Part shown: piece by piece, positions 1 to 58,751 of the stretch
Layout: each line of letters begins with the position of its first letter
How positions within the stretch are numbered: the first letter of the stretch is position 1
Virus record (IMG/VR): IMGVR_UViG_3300019884_000062
Span: 1-58,751 of that record
Source of the DNA: a virus
Lineage: Duplodnaviria; Caudoviricetes
Reading direction: 5' to 3' (one strand)
DNA: 58,751 bases
Notes under the pieces: model-generated
Databases searched by the model: none
The model's input: the letters and a program-made list of their open reading frames with translations, nothing else
What the model was told of the DNA's origin: nothing
Translations under genes and position numbers: made by a program

Positions 1-47
1 AGGACCACGGCGATGACGAAGCTCGCGAACGCTACCTTGGCGCGCAT
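1..47 (-). CDS. 5' part of a 37-aa membrane peptide that continues at 58751..58685 (MRAKVAFASFVIAVVLGIFLIALGYAERAIGWIDVVF)
   Basis: ATG at 47; hand translation across the junction stays in frame and hydrophobic up to TAG at 58685. Confidence 0.75.
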   Translation of the reverse strand, partial: MRAKVAFASFVIAVV

Positions 48-48
48 G

Positions 49-282
49 TTAGCTCCCCTGCTGGCTCATGTAGACGTAGACGATGAGACCGACGATGCCG
101 CCGACCACGATTGCGCCGCGTACGAATGGCTTCTTGAGGATGCCGGCGATGATGAGCGTGAGAACACCGATCACGATCACGGCCGGATGGTCGACTACCC
201 ACTGAGCGACCGATTCGAGCGACAAGCCATCGACGTTGTCAACCGATGGCGGCTCAACGTCTACGGCTGGAAGCTTGCGCAT
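49..282 (-). CDS. Small membrane protein, two TM segments (77 aa)
   Basis: ORF 49..354, likely start ATG 282 with GGAGAGG upstream; two hydrophobic stretches. Confidence 0.75.
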   Translation of the reverse strand: MRKLPAVDVEPPSVDNVDGLSLESVAQWVVDHPAVIVIGVLTLIIAGILKKPFVRGAIVVGGIVGLIVYVYMSQQGS

Positions 283-316
283 GTTGCCTCTCCGAGTTGT
301 GTAGGGAGTTTGGGGT

Positions 317-475
317 CTACTCCACGAGCGACTTGACGAAGTCCCAGAGTCCAACGGCTACGTCGGCCACGGTCCGTCCCAGACCCTGGAACACGTCTCC
401 GGCCGCGTCCGGGCGGTAGGCGATGAAGAACAACAGGAAGGCGATGCCGCCCCACGTCAGGATCTTCTTGATCAC
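317..475 (-). CDS. 52-aa membrane peptide MIKKILTWGGIAFLLFFIAYRPDAAGDVFQGLGRTVADVAVGLWDFVKSLVE
   Basis: Hand-translated (below the ORF-track cutoff); GTG start overlaps the upstream stop (GTGA); TM helix plus amphipathic helix. Confidence 0.75.
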   Translation of the reverse strand: MIKKILTWGGIAFLLFFIAYRPDAAGDVFQGLGRTVADVAVGLWDFVKSLVE

Positions 476-681
476 TTCTCTGGCTCCTTCCAGAGCTCAT
501 CGAGTACGCTGAGGACGGCGCTGCCGATGTCCTTGAGTAGCCGGAAGGCCCCGTCAGCGTGGCCAGTCGATTCCAACCACAGGAAGATCATCGTACCGAC
601 CGCGAGCCCCAGCACGGCTAGGATGATCGTGCCGCAACCGGAGCCTGGTCCCTTCTGGGTGTTGCCGATGCTATCCCACAC
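472..681 (-). CDS. Small membrane protein (69 aa)
   Basis: ORF 472..738; GTG 681 with GGGAGG RBS; TM segment then amphipathic tail. Confidence 0.7.
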   Translation of the reverse strand: MWDSIGNTQKGPGSGCGTIILAVLGLAVGTMIFLWLESTGHADGAFRLLKDIGSAVLSVLDELWKEPEK

Positions 682-683
682 GG

Positions 684-797
684 CTACAGCCTCCCGGTAA
701 GCCAAGCCTGCGCAACACCGAGCAGACCCCAGTACCAACTGACGGCGCAGAAGCCGAGCGCGAGCATGAAGAGCCAGAACTGTGCCGCCTTGCTCAT
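684..797 (-). CDS. 37-aa membrane peptide MSKAAQFWLFMLALGFCAVSWYWGLLGVAQAWLTGRL
   Basis: ATG overlaps the upstream stop (ATGA); hydrophobic. Confidence 0.65.
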   Translation of the reverse strand: MSKAAQFWLFMLALGFCAVSWYWGLLGVAQAWLTGRL

Positions 798-952
798 TGG
801 TCGAGCCAACGGCTGATCTGGCCGGTCCACTCGCCGAGGTCGATCACACCGGCGAAGGCGAGGAACACCACCAACACGGCGACCACGATGACGATCATCA
901 CGACGCCGAGGCAACCGGCCGTCAGGTTCGGTCCACTACGGTCACCACTCAC
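794..952 (-). CDS. 52-aa membrane peptide MSGDRSGPNLTAGCLGVVMIVIVVAVLVVFLAFAGVIDLGEWTGQISRWLDQ
   Basis: Hand-translated; long hydrophobic helix; fills the gap between neighbours with overlapping junctions. Confidence 0.7.
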   Translation of the reverse strand: MSGDRSGPNLTAGCLGVVMIVIVVAVLVVFLAFAGVIDLGEWTGQISRWLDQ

Positions 953-1127
953 GGAACCAGTCTCCTATCCAATCGGGGAACAGCTCCCTGGTCTCGGGAG
1001 CGAGGTAGAGGATGACCACGAGTACGACGAACGCTATGGCGAACGCCCGGACGAAGGTCCAGATTCTGTCGTCGCGGTTCCCGTCACCCATCGCGGCTCC
1101 GATCTTGATTGAGGTTTTCGCTGCCAC
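942..1127 (-). CDS. Small membrane protein (61 aa)
   Basis: ORF track; TM segment FAIAFVVLVVILYL; Trp-rich amphipathic tail. Confidence 0.7.
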   Translation of the reverse strand: MAAKTSIKIGAAMGDGNRDDRIWTFVRAFAIAFVVLVVILYLAPETRELFPDWIGDWFREW

Positions 1128-1158
1128 GCGTAACCTATCGGAGCGCTCCCCGTTGGCG

Positions 1159-1581
1159 CTAGTCGCCTACTAGCTCCAAAAGTCCTAATCGGACACCGAC
1201 CTCGGTCAAGACGCAAAGCGACTCGCTCGCATTCATCTCGGTGCCGCCGGTCACCCACCAACTGTCCTCAGTAGAGCATGTTGGGCCGAACTCGTGTTGC
1301 TCCCACAGAATCACGCCGTAGTTAGCCAAGAAACGTCCCATGTGCGCCTCGCACGGTTGGAACATGGCGCCATCCTTCGTTCGGACGTGCCACGCCGAGG
1401 CCGCCATACAGTCCTGCGCTGGATCGCAGTCCGGCGTGTCATTGTAGTGGCACGAGCCGTCCATGCCGCGCTCCAGATGGCCGACCGGAAGGCCGAGCGC
1501 GCGCTCCACGTCCTCAACGGTTTGTGGGACGAACTCCGGTGTTGGCTCGGTCACACCAGGAGCAGAGTCTATAGGGGACAT
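1159..1581 (-). CDS. Hypothetical protein, Cys/His-containing
   Basis: ORF 1159..1662, likely start MSPIDS with AAGGA upstream. Confidence 0.65.
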   Translation of the reverse strand: MSPIDSAPGVTEPTPEFVPQTVEDVERALGLPVGHLERGMDGSCHYNDTPDCDPAQDCMAASAWHVRTKDGAMFQPCEAHMGRFLANYGVILWEQHEFGPTCSTEDSWWVTGGTEMNASESLCVLTEVGVRLGLLELVGD

Positions 1582-1679
1582 ACAAGAATTCCTTCCAAGC
1601 TCGGATAGCCACAGCCGAGCGCGGCATGTAGCGGATGTCCTTAGGCCAATTGCATACGCCACAGGACGTGTTGAAGGGT

Positions 1680-1874
1680 CTAATGCGACCGTACATCATT
1701 CCTCTTAGGAGGGTCAGAACCCCTCTTCACGAATGGTTGATACTTCGACATACGATGCGGAGCCGCGTCCGCACCGTGCCAGCAGCATCGGCTCGCTACA
1801 TGCCATATGCCGTTGCGAACCACGCAGTAGCAGTCCACGGGCTGAACCCAGTCCGGATCAAGCACGTACATCAT
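1680..1874 (-). CDS. Hypothetical protein (64 aa)
   Basis: ORF track; AAAGGA RBS; overlaps the upstream stop. Confidence 0.5.
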   Translation of the reverse strand: MMYVLDPDWVQPVDCYCVVRNGIWHVASRCCWHGADAAPHRMSKYQPFVKRGSDPPKRNDVRSH

Positions 1875-2050
1875 CGCTTGGTCCTTTCAGGAGGGTTGAT
1901 GAACTCCTTACAAGGGCAGAAGATGCAACCCTTATCTCTATGCGCACCTCGGCGGTGGCCGCATCGCTTGGGATCTTTGACGCGGTGCTTCTCCTCCCAA
2001 GCCCGCGACATAACCCGATCGCATTTGTCTCCGGCCTTAGGGGAGACCAT
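1871..2050 (-). CDS. Small Zn-finger-like protein (CGH..H..C..CPC)
   Basis: Start MVSPKAG with GGAG upstream; Cys/His pattern. Confidence 0.55.
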   Translation of the reverse strand: MVSPKAGDKCDRVMSRAWEEKHRVKDPKRCGHRRGAHRDKGCIFCPCKEFINPPERTKR

Positions 2051-2354
2051 GCGGCCTCGGCTCCACGTACTCCCCGGACGCGCGGCGCTCCTCATAGGTG
2101 GCCGGCCTCCAGATCCGCATCTGCCACGCGTAGTCGATCGCACCCCAGTAGAAACGAGCATTACAGGGAGCGCCATCGCCGTACACGTAGTTACAAGCAA
2201 ACCAGTTGCCATCAGGAATCACACCATGCCTGTGGTGCTCCACAACGTATTCCTTGTGGATCTCCCGGAACCAGCTCTCATCCGGTCCCATCTCCAGGCG
2301 CGGCAATCGCGCACCGTCCTGATCGGACAGTCCTTTATCGATTCGTTGCACCAT
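2037..2354 (-). CDS. Hypothetical protein (105 aa)
   Basis: ORF track; start coupled to the upstream stop. Confidence 0.6.
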   Translation of the reverse strand: MVQRIDKGLSDQDGARLPRLEMGPDESWFREIHKEYVVEHHRHGVIPDGNWFACNYVYGDGAPCNARFYWGAIDYAWQMRIWRPATYEERRASGEYVEPRPHGLP

Positions 2355-2641
2355 CAGAAGCCCTTGACCCTCTCAGCATCGTCATCATCCGCGTACCAAT
2401 CGGCGGGAGTCGGCGGCGGCGGAGCTAACGGAAAGACCGTCGTTTTGACGCTGTCGCGCTTCAATCCCGAGTAGTGGACCGTCACATCGAATCCACCGGT
2501 GTCGTTGATCTTCGTCTCGACTCCCGTGATGATCACAGGCTCGCTCGGCGGCGTGTCGTACGTGAAGGCCCACTCGCTCTTGAACGCGATCCGGTGCTCA
2601 GCCGCCTCGGGCACTGCCGGCTCCTGGTTTCCGTCGCTCAT
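2354..2641 (-). CDS. Hypothetical protein (95 aa)
   Basis: ORF track; protein-like composition; tight spacing. Confidence 0.65.
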   Translation of the reverse strand: MSDGNQEPAVPEAAEHRIAFKSEWAFTYDTPPSEPVIITGVETKINDTGGFDVTVHYSGLKRDSVKTTVFPLAPPPPTPADWYADDDDAERVKGF

Positions 2642-2644
2642 CTC

Positions 2645-2740
2645 TCAGCCCTTCTTGGCGAAGATGAGGCAGGCCACGACCACGAGGCCGATCAGTAGGC
2701 CTGCCCAGAAGTGGTCCCACCTCACCCAACTAAAGTCCAT
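2645..2740 (-). CDS. 31-aa membrane peptide MDFSWVRWDHFWAGLLIGLVVVACLIFAKKG
   Basis: AGGAG RBS; single TM segment with basic tail. Confidence 0.6.
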   Translation of the reverse strand: MDFSWVRWDHFWAGLLIGLVVVACLIFAKKG

Positions 2741-2774
2741 AGCTCCTAGCGTCCCGCGCCGAGCGCGATTGCCG

Positions 2775-3041
2775 CTAGTGTGAGGCCGGGACCTTCCGAC
2801 CCATGATCTCCATAGCCGCGTCGATGATCCGGACGTCCACGTTGGACACGCCCTTCTCCTGCGCGCGCTTGACGATGCGCTCCACATCCTCGATGTAGAG
2901 GTCGCGCGCGTGCGCCAACAGAGCCGTCTCCGAGGTCGCGGCCTCGGGTAGCTTGGGAGCGCTACCGCGTAGGCGGTCTAGCTCCAACTCGGTCGCACGA
3001 CGTACCTCATCGGGCATCTGCGGGAACGGTGTACCTGGCAT
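2775..3041 (-). CDS. Hypothetical helical protein (88 aa)
   Basis: ORF 2775..3122, start MPGTPF with GAGG upstream. Confidence 0.6.
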   Translation of the reverse strand: MPGTPFPQMPDEVRRATELELDRLRGSAPKLPEAATSETALLAHARDLYIEDVERIVKRAQEKGVSNVDVRIIDAAMEIMGRKVPASH

Positions 3042-3779: not shown

Positions 3780-4125
3780 CAATTCATCCGTTGCAAAGTG
3801 CCTCGGCGAGGCAGACGGGTTAGCGAAAGTTTAGGACCACTCGCGTAGGCGCGCGCGAGGCTCGCTGTAGGCGTACGACGCGCAATCGCGTCTACCAGTA
3901 CAAATACATATTGCAATAAGAAACACACCCTCCTATAGGGTCTAACTCTCTCTCTAACCCGTCTACCCGTCTGCCTCCTCTAGTCTTTATGCATCTTGAC
4001 CAGCAAAAACTCAGGCAGACGGGTTATCATTTTTACCCGGCTGCTACCCGTCTTCTACCCGGCTGCCTCATTTTTCCCCAAGAGGCCGGCAGACGGGTAG
4101 GCGGACGGGTAGGAAGACGGGTTAG
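3780..4125. repeat. Putative replication origin: about 10 direct and inverted copies of (A/G)GACGGGT(T)AG flanking an AT-rich patch
   Basis: Copies near 3813, 4017, 4091, 4103, 4115 (+) and 3954, 3963, 4033, 4044, 4055 (inverted); AT-rich 3895-3955; immediately downstream of primase-helicase. Confidence 0.65.
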
Positions 4126-6593
4126 AGCGCCCCGAAAAGCCTTGCGAATTCCTCAGAAAGTCGGATACCCGCTCGGACCTTGACCACATGCCTTCCATCA
4201 TCATCAATAACGGTCTTGCTCTTCTTGTCAAAGCCTCGGCCTGACATATAGCTACCAAACTTAGTGTTCGACTCGGGCTTGATCCCGTTCGTCGTACACC
4301 ATTGCTTATAGGCGGTGTAGAGCGCTTCCGGCGCGACCGAGGCACCCGGCTCAGCAATAGCAATCTCGCCTAGCGCTCGGTCGAAGTCGGACAATTCCCC
4401 CAAGAACTTCTCGCGCGCTTCGAGCGCGCCTGCCGGCATATCGAGGTCCCGAGACGCGGCGTACATGGTCCATCCTTCGAGCGCCCACGCGAGCACGGCC
4501 GGTGCGACCTCCGGCGAGGTGAGCCGGTCGAGCATCGTGTCGTCCTCATCAGACTGTAGGATGACTTGGTCCCACGGCACGATCACGAGCCGCCTACGAA
4601 CAGCCTCATCCGCGCCTTCGATCGTGGGAGAGTTGTTACATAGCAACCAAGGCGTGAAGGCCGGGATGACCTCCCAGAAGGTGTCCGATCGCATCCCGCG
4701 CGCGACTACCGGCGCGCCACCTGTGAGCCGCTTGACTTGGTCCGCATGGAGGTGCCAAGCTTGCGAGGTCTCCTCTGCGACTATCATGCGCTTTCTGAGC
4801 GCTCGCACCAGATCCGGGCGCGGGCGGTCATCTTGGTTGTCCCGGAACACGGTCATGGTCACGGCCGCTGCGTAGTCCCCCAGCGCCGAGCGTAGCGCCT
4901 CGGCGAACGTGGTCTTGCCCGTAGATGACGGGCCAAAGCATACAACAAACAGACGACGTGGGTTGGCGCCATACAGCGAGTAACCCACCAGCTTCTGGAG
5001 CCAGGCCCGAATCTCTGGATCCGGTTGGAACCGATCCAGGAATGCGTCCCAGTCCGGATGGGTGGTACCCTCCACCGAGGCGACATCGCGCACTCCTAGC
5101 TTCATGGTCATCTTGTGTTCGGGGAGAGCCGGCGTGATCGTGAAACCCGGGTTTCTAGACAACACAGCCCGGTCTAGCCGCGCTGGGTCCGCGTCGAAAT
5201 CTGAGCCGAGCACAGAGATCCCGCGCAAGCAGGAGGCGACCGAGATCATAGCCTCCAACGAGCCCTTGGATTCCGACTTGCGGGCCCACTTCTTCAACTC
5301 GACCATCTGGGCCGGATCTTCATCGGCCAAGAACTCAGCCTCATCGCCGATTGCCCGCGCCACTTGGATGGCCCGGCGCTTTACCTCGCCGTTCCGGTCG
5401 ATAATCCAACGTCCTTCAGCGTCCGACCAGAAGAGCCAGCCCCAACCTTCGACGTACCGCATATCGTGTCGGTTGGCGATCGCGAGCCGTTCGGCGTTGC
5501 CCGTATCGCTCCGGGCGTAGCTAAGATGTGCACTACCGCCGCTATCTCCGCCCGCCGGCTCATGCTCATCGCCATTCGAAGTGTTGCCGCCGCCCATACC
5601 TCCATCGAGTAGAGCACAGATGTCCCCATCCTCGGCCAAGCCTTCGGCCGCAACCTTTTGTACGCCTCGGATCACGATCCGAGCCCACTCCTCGGCGGCC
5701 TGCCGTTCGTCTGCGCGTCGAGCCGTAGCGGGGATGAACGTCTTTCGTAGTTCGGCAAGCGCCTTCTCCACGCCCGCGTGCCCGGCGTGTGCGTCCCCGA
5801 TGATCGCCCATGCCCCGTCGCGTCCGGCGTCGTGCGTCCCGCCGTCATCCGAGGCTTGCCGCGCCTTACGTTGGTAGGTCGTGAGAGTCCGCCGCATGGT
5901 CGCGCACATCTCCGGCCCGTTCCGGTTGGAGAGCCACATGCGTACATCGGCCTCATCGAGGTCCGCCACCGGCCGATCGGTCCAGCGCTTCCCGGACGTC
6001 AGACCTTCGATCCATAGCGCGGGTAGGTCCGGCACCTCATCCGGTGTTGGAAAGTCGTTACCCGGTCCCTTGATCCCATCGACCCACCAACGGTACCGGG
6101 CACCGTTTGCGTCTGGATTTGTTGAGGGGTCCACCATAGCGTAACGATGGTCCCAACGGACTAGCTCTACACCGCCGCCTTGCGGCAACTTACCGGGCCA
6201 CGCCAACCCTTCTGGAATCCTGAAGAGCCGGATGCCAGAGCCATCCTCCCGCGCGGTTGGGTAGTAGGTCGCAGGTAGCTCGCCCCATGCTTTGATGGCA
6301 GCCGCGAAGGTCTCCCGGCCTTGCTTGCCCTCGTACATATCCACATCGATGCCCAAGACTGTCTTGGGTAGCCGGAGGCCGATGTTTCCGCCCGCCGCGA
6401 GCCACACCATGTTACCGGCTGAGACGCGCGCCTTGGGGCGGAGCCACTTCTTGAGAGTGACTTCGTCAACGTATGCCCCGTGTACGCCAGTGTACCCATC
6501 GACTGGTGGCCACTTACAATTCGCCGGAAACGGGACCGGCGACCAACCTGCGTCGAAGTACGCTTGCGCGGCGAGGCCATATGGCCCAGTCAC
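4122..6593 (-). CDS. Bifunctional primase/polymerase fused to a D5-type SF3 helicase (P4 family)
   Basis: N-terminal NIGLRLP..GIDVD Prim-pol motifs; DTGNAERL D5_N; Walker A GPSSTGKT; C-terminal winged helix. Confidence 0.93.
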   Translation of the reverse strand: MTGPYGLAAQAYFDAGWSPVPFPANCKWPPVDGYTGVHGAYVDEVTLKKWLRPKARVSAGNMVWLAAGGNIGLRLPKTVLGIDVDMYEGKQGRETFAAAIKAWGELPATYYPTAREDGSGIRLFRIPEGLAWPGKLPQGGGVELVRWDHRYAMVDPSTNPDANGARYRWWVDGIKGPGNDFPTPDEVPDLPALWIEGLTSGKRWTDRPVADLDEADVRMWLSNRNGPEMCATMRRTLTTYQRKARQASDDGGTHDAGRDGAWAIIGDAHAGHAGVEKALAELRKTFIPATARRADERQAAEEWARIVIRGVQKVAAEGLAEDGDICALLDGGMGGGNTSNGDEHEPAGGDSGGSAHLSYARSDTGNAERLAIANRHDMRYVEGWGWLFWSDAEGRWIIDRNGEVKRRAIQVARAIGDEAEFLADEDPAQMVELKKWARKSESKGSLEAMISVASCLRGISVLGSDFDADPARLDRAVLSRNPGFTITPALPEHKMTMKLGVRDVASVEGTTHPDWDAFLDRFQPDPEIRAWLQKLVGYSLYGANPRRLFVVCFGPSSTGKTTFAEALRSALGDYAAAVTMTVFRDNQDDRPRPDLVRALRKRMIVAEETSQAWHLHADQVKRLTGGAPVVARGMRSDTFWEVIPAFTPWLLCNNSPTIEGADEAVRRRLVIVPWDQVILQSDEDDTMLDRLTSPEVAPAVLAWALEGWTMYAASRDLDMPAGALEAREKFLGELSDFDRALGEIAIAEPGASVAPEALYTAYKQWCTTNGIKPESNTKFGSYMSGRGFDKKSKTVIDDDGRHVVKVRAGIRLSEEFARLFGAL

Positions 6594-12479: not shown

Positions 12480-12671
12480 CTAGTACTGCCCGATGCGGAA
12501 CAGCATGGTGTCGCTGAGAGTAACCGGCACCTTGTGAATCTCCACAAGCGCGTGCAGAACGAAGTTCATTTGGTCCAAGTTGCTCGCGGTCGCGCAGTGG
12601 GTAACGAGGCCAGCATAGTCCTCGATGAAGATGCTGTTACCTACCACGATGAACTGCTTGATGGGAGTCAT
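12480..12671 (-). CDS. Hypothetical protein (63 aa)
   Basis: ORF track; GGAGG RBS; ATGA overlap with dnaE. Confidence 0.55.
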   Translation of the reverse strand: MTPIKQFIVVGNSIFIEDYAGLVTHCATASNLDQMNFVLHALVEIHKVPVTLSDTMLFRIGQY

Positions 12672-15600
12672 GAGTCAACCTCCGGATCGATGATGTGTAG
12701 TTCTTTGACGTAGAGCGAGGCGCCGAAACTGTTCTGTGACTTCACGGCGCGGACCCAGATCACATCCTGGCCGAGCCGGATGCGTTCCAGGCCTTGCTTG
12801 AACATTGGGTAGTCGTACCGCTTCACGCGCACATAGACGTCCTCATCTCCATCGTCGCCACAGTGGAGTACGCAAGACGTAGGGAGGTCTGGCCTCCACA
12901 TCTCCGCCTTGATCTCCTCCACGTCCTTGCCGCTCCGCGAGCGCTCATCCTCGATGTAGTCCTTGTACTCCTTGACTCGCGGGATGCCGATCCAGATGAT
13001 CTCTACGTCCGGCGGTACGTCTAGGATGTCATCGCTTCGGCACGTCGGACGGCCGAGCGGGAGCGCGCCTGTGCGGATGTCCGCCCGTACCGCGTCTAGC
13101 ATCCGCTCGACTCGCTTGAGGCCGAACGGGTCATCACCGTCCAGCTGGTCCTCGAAGCCCTCAAGTATCTTCGCGCCGATCCCGTTGACCTTCAACAGAT
13201 CCCACGAGCCTGTGTACTCGTGTGTCTCAAGCCAGCGAAGTATCTTCCCGCTCAGGGACGGACCGATGCCCTTTAGCTGCGTCCATCCAGCCGCGACCTC
13301 GTGATCCGAGACCATCGTCCAGTCCTCAGAGGACCTTCCAGGCTTCACGCCATATACGGTGATCCCATGCTGCTCCGCGTCCTTGATGAGACGCGGCCAC
13401 ATAGTCTCCTTGGTACGCCTCAGTTGCGCGGTGTAGAAGGCAGCCGGGTGATGTACCTTGAACCACATCGCCCATACCCCTAGCATGGAGTAGGATATGC
13501 AGTGCGCGACGTTGAACGCGTAGGTAGCCGAGGTCACAAGCCGGCCCCATATGCCCTTAGCCGTCTCCGCGTCGATGCCGTGGAGTCGCTTGGCTCCGGC
13601 CGCGAAGCTCTCCGCACTCTCGTTGAACTTCGCCTCGCCGAGCTTCTTGCTGATGATCTTGCGGATCTCGTGGACCTCCGCGACCGGCAAGCCGCCGACA
13701 AGCTCCAGAATCTTCAGAATCTGCTCCTGGTAGATGATCTGATAGTTGGTGTCCTTCGTGAGGTCATCGATCATAGGGTGCCAGTGCCGCGCCTTCTTGC
13801 GGCCCCATTTCACGTCCACGTAGTCCGCTGTGGTACCGGAGAACAGAGGTCCAGGGCGGCTCAGCGCGTTGATAGCGGCCAGCTCCATAAACGTGTCCGG
13901 CTTGACATCTCGGTTCACGAGCCGGGTAGCTCGACCTTCGAACTGGAAGATGCCCACGACATCATTGCGGCGGAACGCATCCATGACCTCCGGCTCTTCC
14001 ATGGAGATCCGGTACAGGTCTTCAAGCGTGAGGCCGGTCAACGTGAGCGCCTGGTCGATCATCTCCATCGTAGAGAGTCCCAGGAAGTCAACCTTCAACA
14101 GGTTCAGATACTCGGCGTCATACTTGTCCACCGCGACCACACGAACCTCGTGGCCCTTGACCTCTCTGGTATATGCCGCAACAACTTCATCCAGCGCACG
14201 ATCGGTCGTCACCACGAGTCCGGCCGCGTGCACGTTCATCGTCTTGTAATTGCCTTCGAGCCGAGCCGCCTTCCAGAGGTCCGGATGCCGGTCGAACACG
14301 GCTTGTACGGCCGGGAACATACCGACCGTATCGGCAAGCGTGAAGTCGGCGCGCGAGTCTCCGCCGCTCCGCTCGATCAACATACCCTTCACGGTCTCCG
14401 CGTCTACCTTGGGAATCCGGTACACGCGGGCGATATCATCGATGGAGTTACGACCCTTGTAGCCGACATAGTTGGCGAGGTTCCCAACCCGGTCCTCGCC
14501 GTACCGGCGCACTAGGTGTTCGCGGACCTCGTGCCGTCGCGAGCTAGCAAAGTCGAGGTCGATGTCAGGGATGTCAGTCCTAGTAGGATCGATGAAGCGC
14601 TCGAAGTACATGAGCGGGTACTCCATCGGGTCAATCTCGGTGATCCTAAGTAGATAGCAAACCAAGGAAGCCGCAGCAGAGCCACGGGCCGGTCCCACAG
14701 GGATACCCGCATCCTTCGCAAATCTGACCGCATCGGCAGTGATGAGGAAGTAGTCGATGAAGTCCTTCGCTTTGATGTCCCCCATCTCCCGTAGGAGACG
14801 GTTGTGGTAGGCCACTTTCTCCGCAACCATCTTCCGATTGCCTTGCGCGACGCGGTACGCCCACCCCTCCCTCATCCACTTCCATATCAACTCCTCAGAG
14901 GACAGTCCTAACGCGACTTGGTCAACCGGGAACCGGAGATCACCGGCGCGCGGTAGCTCCACCGTGCAGCGCTCGGCTATCTCCATAGTGGAGCGACAAG
15001 CCTCCATGGCTGCCCGTCTACTTAGGCCAGTCCCTAGTAGACGGTCGAACACGAACTGGTCGGTAATCGGGTGCGTCAACCGGATGTCGTACTCCCACGA
15101 CTCAACCTGCTGCTTTACCGAGTTGCTACCGCGCGAGGCGGCGTGGAGAATGACCTGCATCTCGTTATCGTCAGCCTGCGGGTAGTGAACATCCTGAGTA
15201 CCGACCAACGGGATGCCAAGCTCGCCTCCCAGACGTTGGTACGCCTGGTTGATTTGCCCGGAGCGCGGGAGCTCAGGGAAGGCTTGGCACTCAAGGTAGA
15301 AGCGATCACCCAGTAAACCCTTGAACCGCTGGGCAACCGCCTTCGCGCGAGCATAGGACGCGTCAGCCGCGTCGATGGTCTTTCCACCCAGGAGACTAGA
15401 GGCCAGCAAGGAGTCTGAGCATCCTGATAGGATGATGAGACCCTCATGGTGATCCGCGAGCATGGACCCGTTGACCGTAGGCCAGTAATAGAAATTCTCA
15501 GCATATGAGCGCGTCACAATCCGGTTGAGGTTCGCGTACCCGGTCTGGTTCATGGCCAAGAGCGTGAGGTGGAACTTGCGTTGCGAGCCCGGCTCCGGAT

Positions 15601-15808
15601 GCGTGTACGCCTCCATGCCGAATATGGGCTTAATGCCGGCCTTCTTGGCAGCCTTCTCAAGCTGTACGTGTGACGAGACGTTGCCGTGCTCGGTCAGCGC
15701 TCCCGCGCTCATCCCTAGCTCGGCAGTGCGTAGCACGTGTGCCTCCGGCGTACCGAACCCATCGCCATAGCTGAAGGTCGAGTGGTGGTGCAGGCTAACG
15801 AACTTCAC
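12668..15808 (-). CDS. dnaE: DNA polymerase III alpha subunit (family C)
   Basis: PHP domain SLHHHSTFS; GPARGSAAASLVCYLLRIT; catalytic PDIDLDF; HAAG, KVDFLGL, YAFNVAH motifs. Confidence 0.97.
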   Translation of the reverse strand: MKFVSLHHHSTFSYGDGFGTPEAHVLRTAELGMSAGALTEHGNVSSHVQLEKAAKKAGIKPIFGMEAYTHPEPGSQRKFHLTLLAMNQTGYANLNRIVTRSYAENFYYWPTVNGSMLADHHEGLIILSGCSDSLLASSLLGGKTIDAADASYARAKAVAQRFKGLLGDRFYLECQAFPELPRSGQINQAYQRLGGELGIPLVGTQDVHYPQADDNEMQVILHAASRGSNSVKQQVESWEYDIRLTHPITDQFVFDRLLGTGLSRRAAMEACRSTMEIAERCTVELPRAGDLRFPVDQVALGLSSEELIWKWMREGWAYRVAQGNRKMVAEKVAYHNRLLREMGDIKAKDFIDYFLITADAVRFAKDAGIPVGPARGSAAASLVCYLLRITEIDPMEYPLMYFERFIDPTRTDIPDIDLDFASSRRHEVREHLVRRYGEDRVGNLANYVGYKGRNSIDDIARVYRIPKVDAETVKGMLIERSGGDSRADFTLADTVGMFPAVQAVFDRHPDLWKAARLEGNYKTMNVHAAGLVVTTDRALDEVVAAYTREVKGHEVRVVAVDKYDAEYLNLLKVDFLGLSTMEMIDQALTLTGLTLEDLYRISMEEPEVMDAFRRNDVVGIFQFEGRATRLVNRDVKPDTFMELAAINALSRPGPLFSGTTADYVDVKWGRKKARHWHPMIDDLTKDTNYQIIYQEQILKILELVGGLPVAEVHEIRKIISKKLGEAKFNESAESFAAGAKRLHGIDAETAKGIWGRLVTSATYAFNVAHCISYSMLGVWAMWFKVHHPAAFYTAQLRRTKETMWPRLIKDAEQHGITVYGVKPGRSSEDWTMVSDHEVAAGWTQLKGIGPSLSGKILRWLETHEYTGSWDLLKVNGIGAKILEGFEDQLDGDDPFGLKRVERMLDAVRADIRTGALPLGRPTCRSDDILDVPPDVEIIWIGIPRVKEYKDYIEDERSRSGKDVEEIKAEMWRPDLPTSCVLHCGDDGDEDVYVRVKRYDYPMFKQGLERIRLGQDVIWVRAVKSQNSFGASLYVKELHIIDPEVDS

Positions 15809-15922
15809 GACGTAACCACCACCTACCGCACACGACGCAAAGCCAAGCCGGAATGTACGCAACGGTCGGACGTGGCGCCTCGGACACGTCCGTTACGACC
15901 ATACGCCGACCGCAAGTGTGCG

Positions 15923-33083: not shown

Positions 33084-33473
33084 CTAGCGGCGGACGGAGC
33101 TTGAGTTGGGGTCGGTCACGACCTTGTCGCCGAGCACGCCGGTCTGCCAGGCGAAGGCTGCCGGCGAGATCTGCATCCGCGCCAGGAGCGCGAAGAGCGC
33201 CACGATGGCCGTCGAGACCGACGCCACGAACTGATCGCTCAGATCCAGACCGTACTGCGCGAGTAGCGCGACCACGGCCGTGAAGATGCCGGTGAAGAGC
33301 GGCGGACCGACCGGTCGCGTCGTGGCGGCGATGATGATCGCGTTGGCGACACCGGCGATTGCGAAGGCCGCACCCGGCGTGAGGACATCGAGGCCGAGCG
33401 AGCCGAGCATCGCCAGCACGGCGGTCACGGCGGTCACCCAAAGAGCCGGCTCGCGACCAAAGAGATTCTTCAT
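33084..33473 (-). CDS. Holin, about four TM segments
   Basis: MKNLFGREPALW start typical of actinophage holins; hydrophobic; in the lysis cassette. Confidence 0.8.
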   Translation of the reverse strand: MKNLFGREPALWVTAVTAVLAMLGSLGLDVLTPGAAFAIAGVANAIIIAATTRPVGPPLFTGIFTAVVALLAQYGLDLSDQFVASVSTAIVALFALLARMQISPAAFAWQTGVLGDKVVTDPNSSSVRR

Positions 33474-33528
33474 TCCTTTGCCCCTTTCAGGCGGATTCAG
33501 GGTCGAGTTTAGACGCAAGGCATATTGG

Positions 33529-34050
33529 CTAGTTGGACATAAGCATAGTAGCGATGCCAAAGACAAGCACCAACACAACGCTTATGCCGCCGAGAATTGC
33601 CCCATAGTTCAACCGGCTTTCGCCAACCTGCGCCTTTTGCCCGGCCTGTTCATATTGCGTCTTACGTAGATCGGCGATGTCTTTTTGAATTGGCTCCAAT
33701 GAAGCGGCCCAAGCGACTCGAAGCGCCTCCGCCGAGGTCGCCACCTGGCTTCGTAGCGTCTCCGCTTGAACAGCTGCGACCTCTGTCGCGCGCTGGACCG
33801 CCCCCACATCCACCGCACGAATGGCATCAATTCGAGCCGTCTCCGCTTTGCGTAGCCTGTCTTCGTATTCGGACCGCAAGGCCATAAGCTCGCGAAGATG
33901 GATCGATTCGGCTTGAAGCTTCTCGCCATCCGCCTCGCGAAGATCATCCTGTCTTTGGATAGCAGCCTGGACCAGGTCCAACACATTTTGCGTCGGATCG
34001 ACAACCGGCGTACCGGACGCATCGACTCCCGGTCCAGGCTGTCTTGCCAT
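33529..34050 (-). CDS. Coiled-coil protein with a C-terminal TM anchor (lysis-associated)
   Basis: Heptad-rich; C-terminal ILGGISVVLVLVFGIA; between endolysin and holin. Confidence 0.7.
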   Translation of the reverse strand: MARQPGPGVDASGTPVVDPTQNVLDLVQAAIQRQDDLREADGEKLQAESIHLRELMALRSEYEDRLRKAETARIDAIRAVDVGAVQRATEVAAVQAETLRSQVATSAEALRVAWAASLEPIQKDIADLRKTQYEQAGQKAQVGESRLNYGAILGGISVVLVLVFGIATMLMSN

Positions 34051-34051
34051 G

Positions 34052-34996
34052 TTACAGAGCCGCCTTGAGAGCCGCCAGCTCTTCCGCGTCGTACACGCCG
34101 CGCAGGATCTCGGCGGTCTCCGCCACCGGCGTCTCGCCGAGGCCGGACAGGAGTCCCTTCACGGCCTCCTTGGAATCCAACTCCGCCTCGGCCACCTTGG
34201 CGTTGAGCGTGTCGAAGTCGGTCTTGAGGGTCTTCTTGACCTCTTCGTCGGTCTGCCCCACGGCCGTGGCGAGCGCCTTCACGGCGCCGGTCAACCAGCC
34301 GAGGTAGACATGCAGCGGAACGCGCTTGCCGCTTTCGGTCGGCGATGGGATCGCGACAGCCGTGACATAGTGCGCATCGCGGAGCTGCTGCGCCTGCGCC
34401 GGATCGGTGATCTTCCCCACTTCGTCTTCTCCTCCAGTCATGAGCGCGTAGACGCGTGAACGCTCAGCGCTCATATTCACGCCTTTGGGATCGGTCTTGG
34501 TGCTCGTCTCGCCTGGCGGCTTGCCCGCAGCCGGCTGGTGTTCATAATGACCGGCCATCCGCTTGCGCGGGTCAGCGCCGATCTTGGTCATGATGGCGGC
34601 GGTCGCCTTACGCGCCGCATCGAGTTGGACCGCCGGCCAAGGCTCTCCCTTGTTGTCATTGGCCATCTCGATGCCGAATAGCGCGGTATTGCCCAATCCC
34701 TTGTTCGGTCCGGCCCATCCCACCTTGTTGTGATTGCATCGGCCAGACGCGCAAATGTACACCGTGCCGTCGCGCCAAATCATCATCTGCGCGATTGGCG
34801 GCGGAGCGGTTGCTGATCCATTCAGGATCACATTGACCTCTCCTTGCGCGGTAGCGGACCGCGAGCCGGCCGTGGCATGCCAGGTGATACCGATCGGAGA
34901 GAATGACGTTGATCCTCTGGTCTTCCAACCGGAGACCTCCACGACCTTCACACCTGCGGCGCGCAAAGCATCGGCTAACCATGTCTGCCTTGCCAT
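34052..34996 (-). CDS. Endolysin, N-acetylmuramoyl-L-alanine amidase (Amidase_2)
   Basis: WLADALRAAG..GWKTRG, WHATAG, NHNKVG, GIEM, GHYE, KTDP motifs. Confidence 0.9.
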   Translation of the reverse strand: MARQTWLADALRAAGVKVVEVSGWKTRGSTSFSPIGITWHATAGSRSATAQGEVNVILNGSATAPPPIAQMMIWRDGTVYICASGRCNHNKVGWAGPNKGLGNTALFGIEMANDNKGEPWPAVQLDAARKATAAIMTKIGADPRKRMAGHYEHQPAAGKPPGETSTKTDPKGVNMSAERSRVYALMTGGEDEVGKITDPAQAQQLRDAHYVTAVAIPSPTESGKRVPLHVYLGWLTGAVKALATAVGQTDEEVKKTLKTDFDTLNAKVAEAELDSKEAVKGLLSGLGETPVAETAEILRGVYDAEELAALKAAL

Positions 34997-54027: not shown

Positions 54028-55575
54028 TCATCTCCTTGTCCTAGCTCGCGTTTGCCTAGCGGAGCCGCGATCACTCCATGGTCGGCCGAACAGACCGCTG
54101 TAGAAGCGGCCTAGCGCCTCCGGCGTATGGTTGTCTTTGTCCAGTGGGGCCTCCCGAGCACTCCGCCCGCGCTCGGCGGCTTGCTCGGCCGTTTCTGGGT
54201 ATCGGTACGCGCCGAACTCGCGGATTGTGTTGACGCAACGTCTATGGATCGTAAGGCCGGGCATTCCTGTGGCCGGGTTCAACTTTAGACCACGGCGGAT
54301 CCACTCGATGCGATCCTCTAACGGGATGCTTCCCTTGCCGTGGGTTCGCAGCTTGAGTCGCTGGGCAAGCTCCTTGGTCCGGTCAGGCTCGGCTGGGTCG
54401 GGGTAGACCATCCGAACCGTTCGCGGCGCAAGACCGCGAGCAGCAATATCAGCTGCTGCCTCCTCTGTCGTCTTGTGCGTATCATAGTATTCGTCCAGGA
54501 CATGCACGCGCTCTCTATGTGGGTCTACCTGAATTAGCAACCAAACGAACGGGTTGTTGAACCCGTAGTCTACACAGGCGTAGGTCGCCCACGCCGGATT
54601 GAACTCCTCATCGGTAACGTGGAACTCCTCATCAAAGTCCTTGAAGACCCGACCCACGTACTCCGTGAAGAGCGCCGCGACCTCTTGGTTGAACAGCTCC
54701 TGGCTCATGTCCAGGAACATCGCCCAGATCTCAGCGTTGATGACGATGCCGTGCCGGTTATACCCAAGGCCGTGGATCGACTTAGTTGGGTCAAAGCGCA
54801 CAGCGTTATTGCCCCGGATTGCCTTGTATAGCCTCAGAAGCGCGTCAAGCTGGTGCCTGCGCCGCATCTCGATAGCCTTGCCGAGGAACGCCTCATCGAC
54901 TCCGCCCGGGTACACATGCGGGTTACACCACGATGGGGCGCGCCAAGACCTCCAGTCCGTCCTAAAAGGATCCAACCCCAACATGTAGAGGTCATAGAAC
55001 CAGTTCTTGCCTTCCGGGGTCGAGTTGAACATCGACCAACCGTTGAAGTCGGCGAGGGTAGGCCGGATGTACTTGTACCAGACGCTCGGCTTCATCTTCG
55101 CGGCCTCGGCCATGATCACGCCCGACAGACCTTCGCCAACCAGCGTCCCTGGGTACTTCGCCGACTTAGCGTGTATGATGAAGCGCCGACCGAACATGGA
55201 GATGACCATCTCGCCGGACTCGGGGTTGTTATAGCTACCGGGATGGTCGAACTCGAAGCCGAGCCGCTCCAGCTGACTCCAGGTAGTCCTGAACTCCTTC
55301 TCGGAGTCGCTGTATTCCGGCCCAACGATCCAGTACTCACGCCTCTGTCCGAGGCGGATCAACTCATCTAGCTCATACCAGGTCCGAAACGCCTCCGGTA
55401 CAAGCCTTCTACCGCCGGTCTGGGACTTGCCGGCTCGCCGACCGAGCGCGACCACCTTGTTTCTGGTGCCGTCCAACAGGATCTCGCGCTGCACTTTATG
55501 CGGCTCCCATCCCGACTGCTCCCAGAGTGATTCGTTGAGCTCATCTGGGATCGGTGGGGTGAGAAGGATCGGCAT
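54028..55575 (-). CDS. terL: Terminase large subunit
   Basis: GRRAGKS Walker A, AEAA Walker B, STPEG, nuclease DYGF..DPA..DKDNH. Confidence 0.95.
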   Translation of the reverse strand: MPILLTPPIPDELNESLWEQSGWEPHKVQREILLDGTRNKVVALGRRAGKSQTGGRRLVPEAFRTWYELDELIRLGQRREYWIVGPEYSDSEKEFRTTWSQLERLGFEFDHPGSYNNPESGEMVISMFGRRFIIHAKSAKYPGTLVGEGLSGVIMAEAAKMKPSVWYKYIRPTLADFNGWSMFNSTPEGKNWFYDLYMLGLDPFRTDWRSWRAPSWCNPHVYPGGVDEAFLGKAIEMRRRHQLDALLRLYKAIRGNNAVRFDPTKSIHGLGYNRHGIVINAEIWAMFLDMSQELFNQEVAALFTEYVGRVFKDFDEEFHVTDEEFNPAWATYACVDYGFNNPFVWLLIQVDPHRERVHVLDEYYDTHKTTEEAAADIAARGLAPRTVRMVYPDPAEPDRTKELAQRLKLRTHGKGSIPLEDRIEWIRRGLKLNPATGMPGLTIHRRCVNTIREFGAYRYPETAEQAAERGRSAREAPLDKDNHTPEALGRFYSGLFGRPWSDRGSARQTRARTRR

Positions 55576-57572: not shown

Positions 57573-58025
57573 CTAGTTCACGCGTTCCAGAACACACTTG
57601 AACTTCGACGGCAGCTCTCCGGTCGCACTCACCGCCTTGTCCTTCGCGGTCGCACCGGCGGCCAAGTTGTTCACGACACCGTGCGCCTCGCCGAGCCGGG
57701 TACCGGCCGCGTCCGTGACGCCAAACTGGATCCAGTAACTCTCCGTCCGGTCGCTGGCATTCACGACCGTGAAGCCGACCTCGGCCATCCCCAGCGCGTC
57801 GGCGCGGCAGGCCGTGATCTTCACGTGTTCCTTGAGGCCGGTCGATCCGTTCTGGATCTGGTCGTCCACGGCCTTCGCGCCGAGGCCGAGCGCCGCGACC
57901 GCGACACCTCCGCAGACCAACATGAGCGCGACGAATCCGCCGAGGAGCCAGGGCCACATCTTGCGCTTCTTGGGCGGCTGCGGCGGTCCACTCGGGTAAC
58001 CACCGTGCGTCTGTTGCGGGTACAT
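57573..58025 (-). CDS. Membrane-anchored surface protein, FxLYD-like Ig fold
   Basis: Pro-rich N-terminus, KKRK plus TM segment, VVN.S..SYWIQF..D..GTRLG..NLAAG; AAGGAG RBS. Confidence 0.7.
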   Translation of the reverse strand: MYPQQTHGGYPSGPPQPPKKRKMWPWLLGGFVALMLVCGGVAVAALGLGAKAVDDQIQNGSTGLKEHVKITACRADALGMAEVGFTVVNASDRTESYWIQFGVTDAAGTRLGEAHGVVNNLAAGATAKDKAVSATGELPSKFKCVLERVN

Positions 58026-58250
58026 ATCATCTCCTTGATTGAGTTTCAAAGGCAAGGAGACCTTACCCGACGGTAAACACCTGGCGCTATATGTGGGCCT
58101 CCGGCCGCTTCCTGGGGAAGGCACGGCCGGAGGCTGGCTAGACGTAGTAGTTGGTAGGCCACATTACTCTCGTGGTCGCATAGCTACCTCCCAACCTACC
58201 GCTGATAGCAGCACAGTACTCGAAGCGTAGGCGAGCCGGCTAGGGTGGCG

Positions 58251-58684: not shown

Positions 58685-58751
58685 CTAGAAGACTACATCG
58701 ATCCAACCGATGGCGCGCTCCGCGTACCCGAGCGCGATCAGGAAGATGCCC
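58685..58751 (-). CDS. 3' part of the junction-spanning 37-aa membrane peptide
   Basis: In frame with 47..1. Confidence 0.7.
   Translation of the reverse strand, partial: GIFLIALGYAERAIGWIDVVF

Follow-up and report, generated by a model that had tools for sequence, protein, structure and literature searches.

A run of seven very small membrane protein genes in a variable slot of an uncultured soil phage, one of them a member of a microprotein family of its likely host

The window analysed here is a whole IMG/VR virus record, IMGVR_UViG_3300019884_000062 (58,751 bases; CheckV completeness estimate 90%), which represents a siphovirus-type, lytic-looking phage from soil that most likely infects a Phytohabitans-like member of Micromonosporaceae. 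It possesses a run of seven open reading frames (ORFs), named m1 to m7, which are co-oriented, probably co-translated genes of very small membrane proteins in an accessory position. One of them, m5, is derived from a microprotein gene of the host family. We give about an even chance to the reading that the seven form a mosaic accessory cassette of unrelated microproteins directed at the host membrane, with m5 as a host mimic. Nothing in phage genomes is less well understood than their small membrane proteins, which gene callers often miss. In this phage, seven such genes could be demonstrated from sequence statistics alone, in a defined slot which turns over between related phages.

The seven genes and their products

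The cassette is encoded on the minus strand. It follows downstream of the primase arm, where the replication arm has its far end. Its members are given below, with lengths in amino acids (aa).

1127..942, minus strand: m1, one membrane helix, 61 aa if started at the GTG and 49 aa if started at the ATG at 1091
952..794, minus strand: m2, 52 aa, one membrane helix
797..684, minus strand: m3, 37 aa, one weakly hydrophobic Trp-rich helix
681..472, minus strand: m4, 69 aa, membrane helix and amphipathic second helix
475..317, minus strand: m5, 52 aa, GTG start; phage copy of a conserved actinobacterial membrane microprotein
282..49, minus strand: m6, 77 aa, two-helix hairpin with a basic loop
47..1, minus strand: 5' part of m7, start codon and 15 codons, running off the record
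58751..58685, minus strand: 3' part of m7, 22 codons and stop; if the ends of the record join, m7 has 37 aa and one membrane helix

An initial annotation of this DNA had proposed seven micro-ORFs of 37-77 aa, several of them with overlapping start and stop codons, and both points were borne out, for m7 only if the ends join. m1 and m2 overlap by 11 nucleotides (nt), m2 and m3 share ATGA, and m4 and m5 share GTGA. The remaining gaps are 2 nt (m3/m4), 34 nt (m5/m6) and 1 nt (m6/m7), and with the ends joined the stop codon of m7 lies 2 nt before the ATG of the following gene, which encodes a 143-aa protein. GGAG-type Shine-Dalgarno sites were found 5-10 nt upstream of m2, m4, m5, m6 and m7 (five of the seven), with GGGGAG 6 nt upstream of the m7 start codon. 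The site at GTG 1127 of m1 is poor, and a GGAG is present 5 nt before ATG 1091; public gene calls of both lengths, 61 aa and 49 aa, exist in the protein database. In a sliding plot, third-position G+C peaks in the exact proposed frame and the frame changes at every ORF boundary. The G+C content of the first, second and third codon positions (GC1, GC2 and GC3) follows a mid/low/high pattern in all seven, with GC3 between 0.77 and 0.89; the three values are 0.56/0.45/0.77 in m1, and GC3 is 0.81 in m2 and 0.82 in m3. Several starts in a program-made ORF list had been suspected to be wrong. The upstream extensions in that list have low GC3 (0.33 for m3, 0.58 for m4 and 0.54 for m6), which supports the starts used here for these three genes. 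All seven are very probably translated. The least certain is m3, the lowest in hydrophobicity and the weakest case for translation.

These data bear on a reading in which the cassette has little or no function, the slot simply gathering hydrophobic ORFs, newly arisen or in decay, which persist without being selected for, with only m5 and m6 maintained. Five of the seven are orphans in all searches and the slot content turns over between relatives, as such a reading would expect. It has to face the codon-position pattern of established genes in all seven and the ribosome-binding sites of five, along with the near-identical copies of the cassette region in soil metagenome runs from three studies, possibly including the study from which the record came. 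None of the runs listed with this sequence is an RNA run. We consider it very unlikely.

A variant contig from run X2 matches positions 341..952 with seven differences, all of them inside m5, m2 to m4 being identical. Five of the seven differences, as counted from the listed positions, are at third codon positions of m5. Because this contig continues with unlike sequence below position 341 (joint region 341..385), a recombination joint within the cassette, in the tail-coding part of m5, is suggested. Upstream of m1, the -10-like TAGGTT which had been pointed out earlier does occur, at 1137..1132 with 4 nt between it and the GTG, but it carries no weight as a promoter since a consensus scan of 1..3000 gave 0 promoter-like sites. 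A perfect 10-bp palindrome, GGAGCGCTCC, occupies 1140..1149 between the upstream 140-aa gene and m1, and has one exact copy in the window. It was rejected as a repeated motif, as its 11 matches at up to one mismatch were equalled by 5 of 100 shuffles.

Membrane character was analysed in windows of 19 residues, the criterion being a Kyte-Doolittle mean of 1.6 or higher. A hydrophobic segment was found in all seven ORFs, m6 possessing two with a basic loop between them, in agreement with the membrane helix claimed for each member. Outside the cluster the same criterion was reached by 11 of the 87 crude ORFs and, among the 23 ORFs not longer than 100 aa, by 4; by this comparison the run of seven membrane ORFs is far from chance. 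The mean reaches 2.69 in m1 (residues 25-43), which has an acidic Trp-rich tail, and 1.69 in m3. The C-terminal aromatic amphipathic helix which had been ascribed to most members was only partly recovered. The helical moment of the tail is at least 0.6 in four of the seven. When compared with shuffled tails, m4 is the one member that is clearly distinct (exceeded by 9 of 1000 shuffles). The figures for m1, m2 and m5 are 50-77 of 1000, the tails of m3 and m7 are not distinct from shuffles and that of m6 is too short for the comparison. Tryptophan is enriched in the cassette (4.4% vs 2.3%, p = 0.009). Based on charges, m1, m2, m4, m5 and m7 are predicted to have the N-terminus inside and the acidic tail outside. 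AlphaFold2 modelled m5, with an alignment, as a membrane helix with another long helix after it (pLDDT 94), and m4, from the single sequence, as helices at 15-39 and 42-64 (pLDDT 72). Foldseek found no match to the m5 model in PDB.

To the initial annotation the seven were a diversified family sharing one architecture, a view that could not be kept. All 21 pairs were compared by Smith-Waterman alignment against 300 composition-preserving shuffles and only m3/m7 stood out (z 3.4, 1/300); for the remaining 20 pairs z did not exceed 2.5, a similarity no greater than that of shuffled sequences, and the shared helix with a short tail is a generic feature. No cassette member reached significance in Pfam, PHROGs, NCBIfam or PADLOC. 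PHROG matches all had E of at least 0.026, and the best PADLOC match, of m6 to a 2TM effector model, had E 0.066. No cassette protein matched a bacteriocin family. Nor do the seven conform to the leaderless (class IId-type) bacteriocins, which are cationic, lack a true membrane helix and have PH-domain and ABC export genes beside them: the tails are net acidic, each protein has a hydrophobic segment of membrane length, and the phage has no PH-domain gene.

Among individual members, m1 has no relative in the protein database besides its own two calls, m2 and m3 are absent from 61 Micromonosporaceae genomes, and a search of 5.8 billion proteins with m4 returned m4 itself alone. Against five Micromonosporaceae genomes, m1, m4 and m6 gave chance-level matches only (E of at least 0.14). 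Two full-length homologues of m6 were found, with 60% and 52% identity; in their alignment 32 of 77 columns do not vary, the loop and a 9-residue motif at the N-terminus being among them. Scans of viral and metagenome contigs with this alignment found nothing. Three candidates were rejected. The similarity of m6 to bPH_10 (E 0.0025) has 17.7 bits against a cut-off of 27 and occurs in one of three family members, and hhalign against the host bPH_2 protein gave 0.07% probability. A viral-contig match of m4, in locus L002, lies in the wrong frame over a phosphoesterase-like gene. The score of m4 as a SafA-type connector in Protein Atlas, 0.75-0.81, is at chance level.

m5 and its bacterial microprotein family

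Searching with m5 by phmmer revealed 59 representatives at E of 1e-3 or lower, mostly of 50-80 aa and most of them matched over residues 1-51, with E down to 3.5e-11 for single proteins. A search with a single peptide pattern, using one genome per species, gave 192 relatives; the best 80 of the 192 are mostly from Micromonosporaceae, with a few unclassified Actinomycetota. The family alignment is marked by an invariant proline after the helix and a Gly-x-Gly-Asp-Phe-Phe-like tail. Pro22, invariant in the family, and the nearly invariant Phe46 are both kept in m5. A glycine of the C-terminal Gly-x-Gly-Asp-Phe stretch, found in 20 of 28 aligned members, is tryptophan in m5. No Pfam or NCBIfam model exists for the family, as none of the 28 members had a significant match. 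A profile of the microprotein matched 59 of 61 sampled Micromonosporaceae genomes, with 1-4 copies each, and 30 of 301 genomes in a phylum-wide sample (23 of 294 without seven flagged as unpublished). Thus the analysis exposes an unannotated microprotein family in nearly all sampled members of this bacterial family, genetically coupled to a bPH_2 protein as described below.

The chromosomal genes of Phytohabitans share 75-80% identity with m5. In a maximum likelihood tree of 81 rows, m5 is placed inside the Phytohabitans/Pilimelia clade (support 100/97), on a terminal branch of 0.27 compared with at most 0.11 for the bacteria of this clade. Synonymous divergence (dS) from six clade genomes is about 1-2, with a ratio of nonsynonymous to synonymous divergence (dN/dS) of 0.10-0.25; the ratio is 0.27-0.28 against two Micromonosporaceae genomes outside the clade. 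The divergence is unevenly distributed along the protein, residues 1-22 being identical to the host protein at 22 of 22 positions and residues 23-52 at 19 of 30. The placement shows a host origin of m5, and by the dS of about 1-2 and the low dN/dS the transfer is old and purifying selection has been maintained in the phage. Tracing m5 to a host gene also provides the host prediction for this uncultured soil phage, namely Phytohabitans-like Micromonosporaceae. A short contig from run X1 contains a diverged 5' half of m5 in a different context; it may be a chromosomal copy of a soil bacterium. Decoys for a receptor or pilin had been among the suggested functions of the cassette. The general idea of a decoy gains from m5 being a diverged copy of a near-universal microprotein of the host family, but there is no sequence support for receptor or pilin decoys.

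In the bacterial loci, the microprotein gene is found some 100 nt downstream of one encoding a DUF6758 protein. In Phytohabitans, it is situated 10-11 nt upstream of a gene for a 283-aa two-helix membrane protein with a bPH_2 domain (PF03703), which is followed by genes for an extracytoplasmic function (ECF) sigma factor, a PHP-domain protein and a MarC protein. The neighbourhood was analysed by tblastn in 86 bacterial loci (L078:3163-5018 and 85 further loci, namely L077-L156, L170-L175 and L177). In 81 of the 86, all of them loci where the microprotein was found, the next gene on this strand at a distance of up to 900 nt is that of the bPH_2 protein, and the DUF6758 gene precedes the microprotein gene in 78 of the 86. 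The pair of microprotein and bPH_2 genes was also found in six of ten distant loci of the phylum-wide sample, including loci with 33-42% identity; two of these six (L174 and L175) are from unpublished genomes. Judged by gene order, the trio of DUF6758 protein, microprotein of about 52 aa and bPH_2 protein appears conserved and unannotated in Micromonosporaceae, and the pair recurs in distant Actinomycetota. Secondary copies of the microprotein gene, observed in ten genomes, are without bPH_2 and DUF6758 neighbours. The phage itself showed no PF03703 match at E of 1 or lower and so has no bPH_2 gene of its own. A complex prediction of m5 with a fragment of the Phytohabitans bPH_2 protein (residues 100-270) gave no verdict, at a score of 0.00.

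The same observations can also be read with m5 as a working substitute of the auxiliary-gene type: an extra host microprotein would keep a membrane function going, the other six genes being passengers. This is the main alternative to mimicry for m5. The dN/dS of 0.10-0.28, the unchanged membrane helix and the retention of Pro22 and Phe46 are what a substitute would show. Less easily accommodated are the long phage branch, the change of 11 of 30 tail residues and the replacement of the tail glycine by tryptophan. As an account of the cassette it seems to us clearly unlikely.

The variable slot and its genomic surroundings

Related phages were sought by a terminase scan of IMG/VR, which gave 73 loci, the closest at 73-76% identity. 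The initial annotation had proposed to look for the same cluster in related phages. It was not found, as tblastn of m1 to m7 against the 73 loci gave nothing below E 0.08; other small membrane ORFs are present there instead. Conserved nearby are the gene of the 143-aa protein downstream of the cassette and the 241-aa gene that comes after it; the upstream 140-aa gene is conserved in part of the loci. In the four relatives whose sequence covers the slot, other small ORFs with hydrophobic segments were counted immediately upstream of the homologue of the 143-aa gene, namely in L003 (five), L004 (four), L005 (five) and L190 (two). The position of the cassette is a variable slot with high turnover, bounded by the replication arm on one side and by the conserved 143-aa gene upstream of the terminase on the other.

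Some slot proteins are common to more than one relative. A 2-TM protein with an Arg-Trp-Gly-Gly-Tyr loop (L003:7808-8104, L004:3570-3815 and L005:7761-8009) lies directly upstream of the 143-aa gene in the relatives and is absent from the window. Short lipoprotein-like ORFs (L003:7713-7919, L004:3399-3566 and L190:4719-4898) have a hydrophobic N-terminus followed by a cysteine and two further conserved cysteines, and a protein of 116-136 aa with a C-terminal anchor is common to L003 and L004. None of the slot proteins of the relatives is convincingly related to m1-m7; the best match, between m2 and the first helix of the 2-TM family (8.4 bits), is a weak lead.

The elements flanking the cassette are as follows.

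1159..1581, minus strand: 140-aa Cys-rich protein, upstream of the cassette; homologue in L005 with 37% identity
58251..58682, minus strand: conserved 143-aa Cys/His-rich protein, bounding the slot downstream
58097..58134, minus strand: perfect hairpin rich in G+C, stem of 11-12 bp, inside the non-coding gap of 225 nt (58026..58250) that follows the 143-aa gene
58025..57573, minus strand: FxLYD-domain protein (NF038353), 150 aa, membrane-anchored

The L005 homologue of the 140-aa protein adjoins the small membrane ORFs of that phage, and a scan of viral contigs with the 140-aa protein found nothing. The 143-aa protein has 45-50% identity to its homologues in L003, L004, L005 and L190 and 39% in L007, where its gene abuts the start of the locus and the slot is not covered. 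It had no family match and is absent from five Phytohabitans genomes. An FxLYD-like surface protein had been noted nearby, and this was confirmed by a score of 28.8 bits for NF038353 (cut-off 23, E 8.6e-7); a hydrophobic segment of this protein reaches a Kyte-Doolittle mean of 2.36. From the 140-aa gene to the FxLYD gene, eight membrane proteins were counted among ten consecutive genes. The hairpin has no T-run and was not listed by a terminator scan. It could be a factor-independent terminator of actinobacterial type, marking the end of a transcription unit, or could lie near a packaging site.

Nearly all crude ORFs with coding-type GC3 are on the minus strand of the record. Apart from a tail fibre-like protein and a helicase, which were also recognised in the genome, the main genes are:

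55575..54028: terminase, 48% identity to Gordonia phage terminases
34996..34052: endolysin, part of the lysis cassette
33578..33084: holin-family protein (phrog_9752), part of the lysis cassette
15862..12668: DNA polymerase
6593..4122: primase

No tRNA genes were found and no Rfam families matched in the window, and megablast and blastn of the cassette region gave no match among cultured phages.

The presence of a lysis cassette matters for another reading, in which the small proteins are lysis accessories, that is, extra holins, antiholins or regulators of lysis timing. Their size and one or two membrane helices do recall holin classes. The phage has its complete set of endolysin and holin at 34996..33084, 33 kb away, which makes a lysis role unlikely. 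In addition, m1-m6 matched no holin family in the Pfam and PHROG scans, and non-homologous genes occupy the same slot in relatives. We therefore regard this explanation as hardly probable at all.

The initial annotation spoke of a circle, and m7 exists as a whole only if the ends of the record are joined. Its two halves, at opposite ends, share one common frame with high GC3 in each (0.93 and 0.86). The 140-aa and 143-aa genes lie at the two ends of the window; their homologues in L005 are neighbours only 670 nt apart, which supports joining the ends. Against circularity, the record is of the linear class and has no terminal repeat, so that the circle fits the gene order and frame but is not proven. 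In the protein database, m6 and the 49-aa form of m1 were placed on a contig of 58,949 bases, 198 beyond the window. This may be another assembly of the phage, the excess pointing to a possible end overlap or to sequence missing between the ends.

Possible roles and comparison with known systems

In the reading to which we give an even chance, the seven unrelated genes and the following 143-aa gene would be read as one translationally coupled unit. The products would insert into the cytoplasmic membrane of the host during infection, most of them with the N-terminus inside and the C-terminus outside, exposing acidic Trp-bearing tails, and each may act on a different host membrane component. As a host-derived copy of the microprotein whose gene is coupled to that of the bPH_2 membrane protein, m5 would, with its helix unchanged, take the place of the host microprotein at its membrane partner, presumably the bPH_2 protein. 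Its altered tail would then change the outcome, so that the partner module is altered or hijacked. Mimicry of this sort would be the simplest mechanism for m5. Some bacterial one-helix small membrane proteins are known to work by binding a larger membrane partner; no homology of these to the cassette is claimed.

Several points weigh against this reading. Five of the seven (m1-m4 and m7) have no relative in anything searched, and the closest phage relatives are without m5. Neither other IMG/VR contigs, searched with one peptide pattern, nor cultured phage records gave an m5 relative, which suggests that capture of m5 is rare and dispensable. Gene adjacency is the sole tie between the microprotein and the bPH_2 protein, and the secondary bacterial copies in L183, L185 and L184 stand instead beside a sensor kinase/response regulator pair, beside an MFS transporter and on a stretch resembling an actinomycete mobile element. 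An antagonist and a working substitute are equally compatible with the conserved helix and the diverged tail. Co-transcription is deduced from spacing only, and the linear class given to the record by IMG/VR, with no terminal repeat of 12 nt or longer, leaves the joining of the ends unproven.

A bolder form of the mimicry reading, which we think rather unlikely, regards the whole slot as a toolbox of mimics of host membrane microproteins. In this form m5 would imitate a microprotein that works with a PH-domain membrane protein, itself related to those which carry small leaderless peptides across membranes, and would disable or take over this envelope module, and the six others would be rapidly replaced single-helix binders of other complexes. 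If it is true, the host microprotein and the bPH_2 protein would constitute an undescribed, conserved two-gene membrane system of Actinomycetota.

Superinfection exclusion or inhibition of membrane-based defences had also been put forward for the cassette. Such proteins would sit in the membrane of the infected cell and keep out the DNA of competing phages, or put membrane-based defence effectors out of action. The small size of the proteins, their location in the membrane, the acidic tails predicted to face outward and the fast turnover of the slot fit conflict genes, and T4 Imm/Sp and lactococcal Sie are likewise small membrane proteins. The absence of any PADLOC, PHROG or Pfam family match tells against this role, and exclusion leaves the copying of a housekeeping host microprotein by m5 unexplained. 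No integrase or repressor was found among about 20 proteins scanned, the whole genome not having been scanned for these, so that lasting exclusion by a prophage looks unlikely. We take the exclusion or anti-defence role as a whole to be quite unlikely.

Known exclusion proteins, such as T4 Imm/Sp, lactococcal Sie2009 and HK97 gp15, are single-gene superinfection-exclusion proteins anchored in the host membrane. The cassette proteins resemble them in being small, phage-encoded and membrane-anchored; they differ in that no sequence relation was found and that they are encoded as a row of seven. In large surveys, many of the small gene families of phages are reported as predicted membrane proteins or secreted proteins. 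In a search of the literature on phage small membrane proteins, which was not exhaustive, no description of the m5 family or of such a cassette was found. Compared with the host family of about 52 aa, m5 has the same length, the same Pro22 and Phe46 and the same predicted two-helix shape, but it lacks the bacterial neighbours, has a diverged tail and sits on a long branch.

For the pairing of the bacterial microprotein with a bPH_2 protein, the modules of enterocin DD14 offer a parallel. In Firmicutes, YdbS/YdbT-like PH-domain membrane proteins are required for export of the small leaderless peptides of enterocin DD14, and homologues occur in other leaderless-bacteriocin loci (PMC8657885). Membrane proteins of this type are thus known to handle small helical peptides. 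In the DdE/DdF modules of enterocin DD14, as in the actinobacterial pair, the gene of a small helical peptide adjoins that of a bacterial PH-domain membrane protein; in the enterocin modules the peptide is leaderless and is handled by that protein (PMC8657885). The leaderless-bacteriocin modules differ from the actinobacterial pair in being strain-specific loci, whereas the pair is near-universal and chromosomal, and the loci inspected showed no ABC transporter next to the pair. A true membrane helix and the lack of cationic character set the m5-type proteins apart from leaderless bacteriocins.

The nearest comparison among phages is with the mycobacteriophage Waterfoul, in which three of seven small membrane proteins were growth-inhibitory on overexpression (PMC9339283). 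Both sets consist of short ORFs recognised by a membrane helix alone, and both are located in non-structural parts of siphoviruses of Actinomycetota with genomes of about 60 kb. The seven of Waterfoul are scattered, as described there (gp19, 31, 32, 41, 45, 58 and 71), while those analysed here are consecutive within 1.2 kb and coupled, and one is host-derived. Small membrane proteins are routine in actinobacteriophages; what is unusual here is the presence of seven coupled genes in a row, the turnover of the slot and the host-derived member, which belongs to a near-universal family that has remained unannotated.

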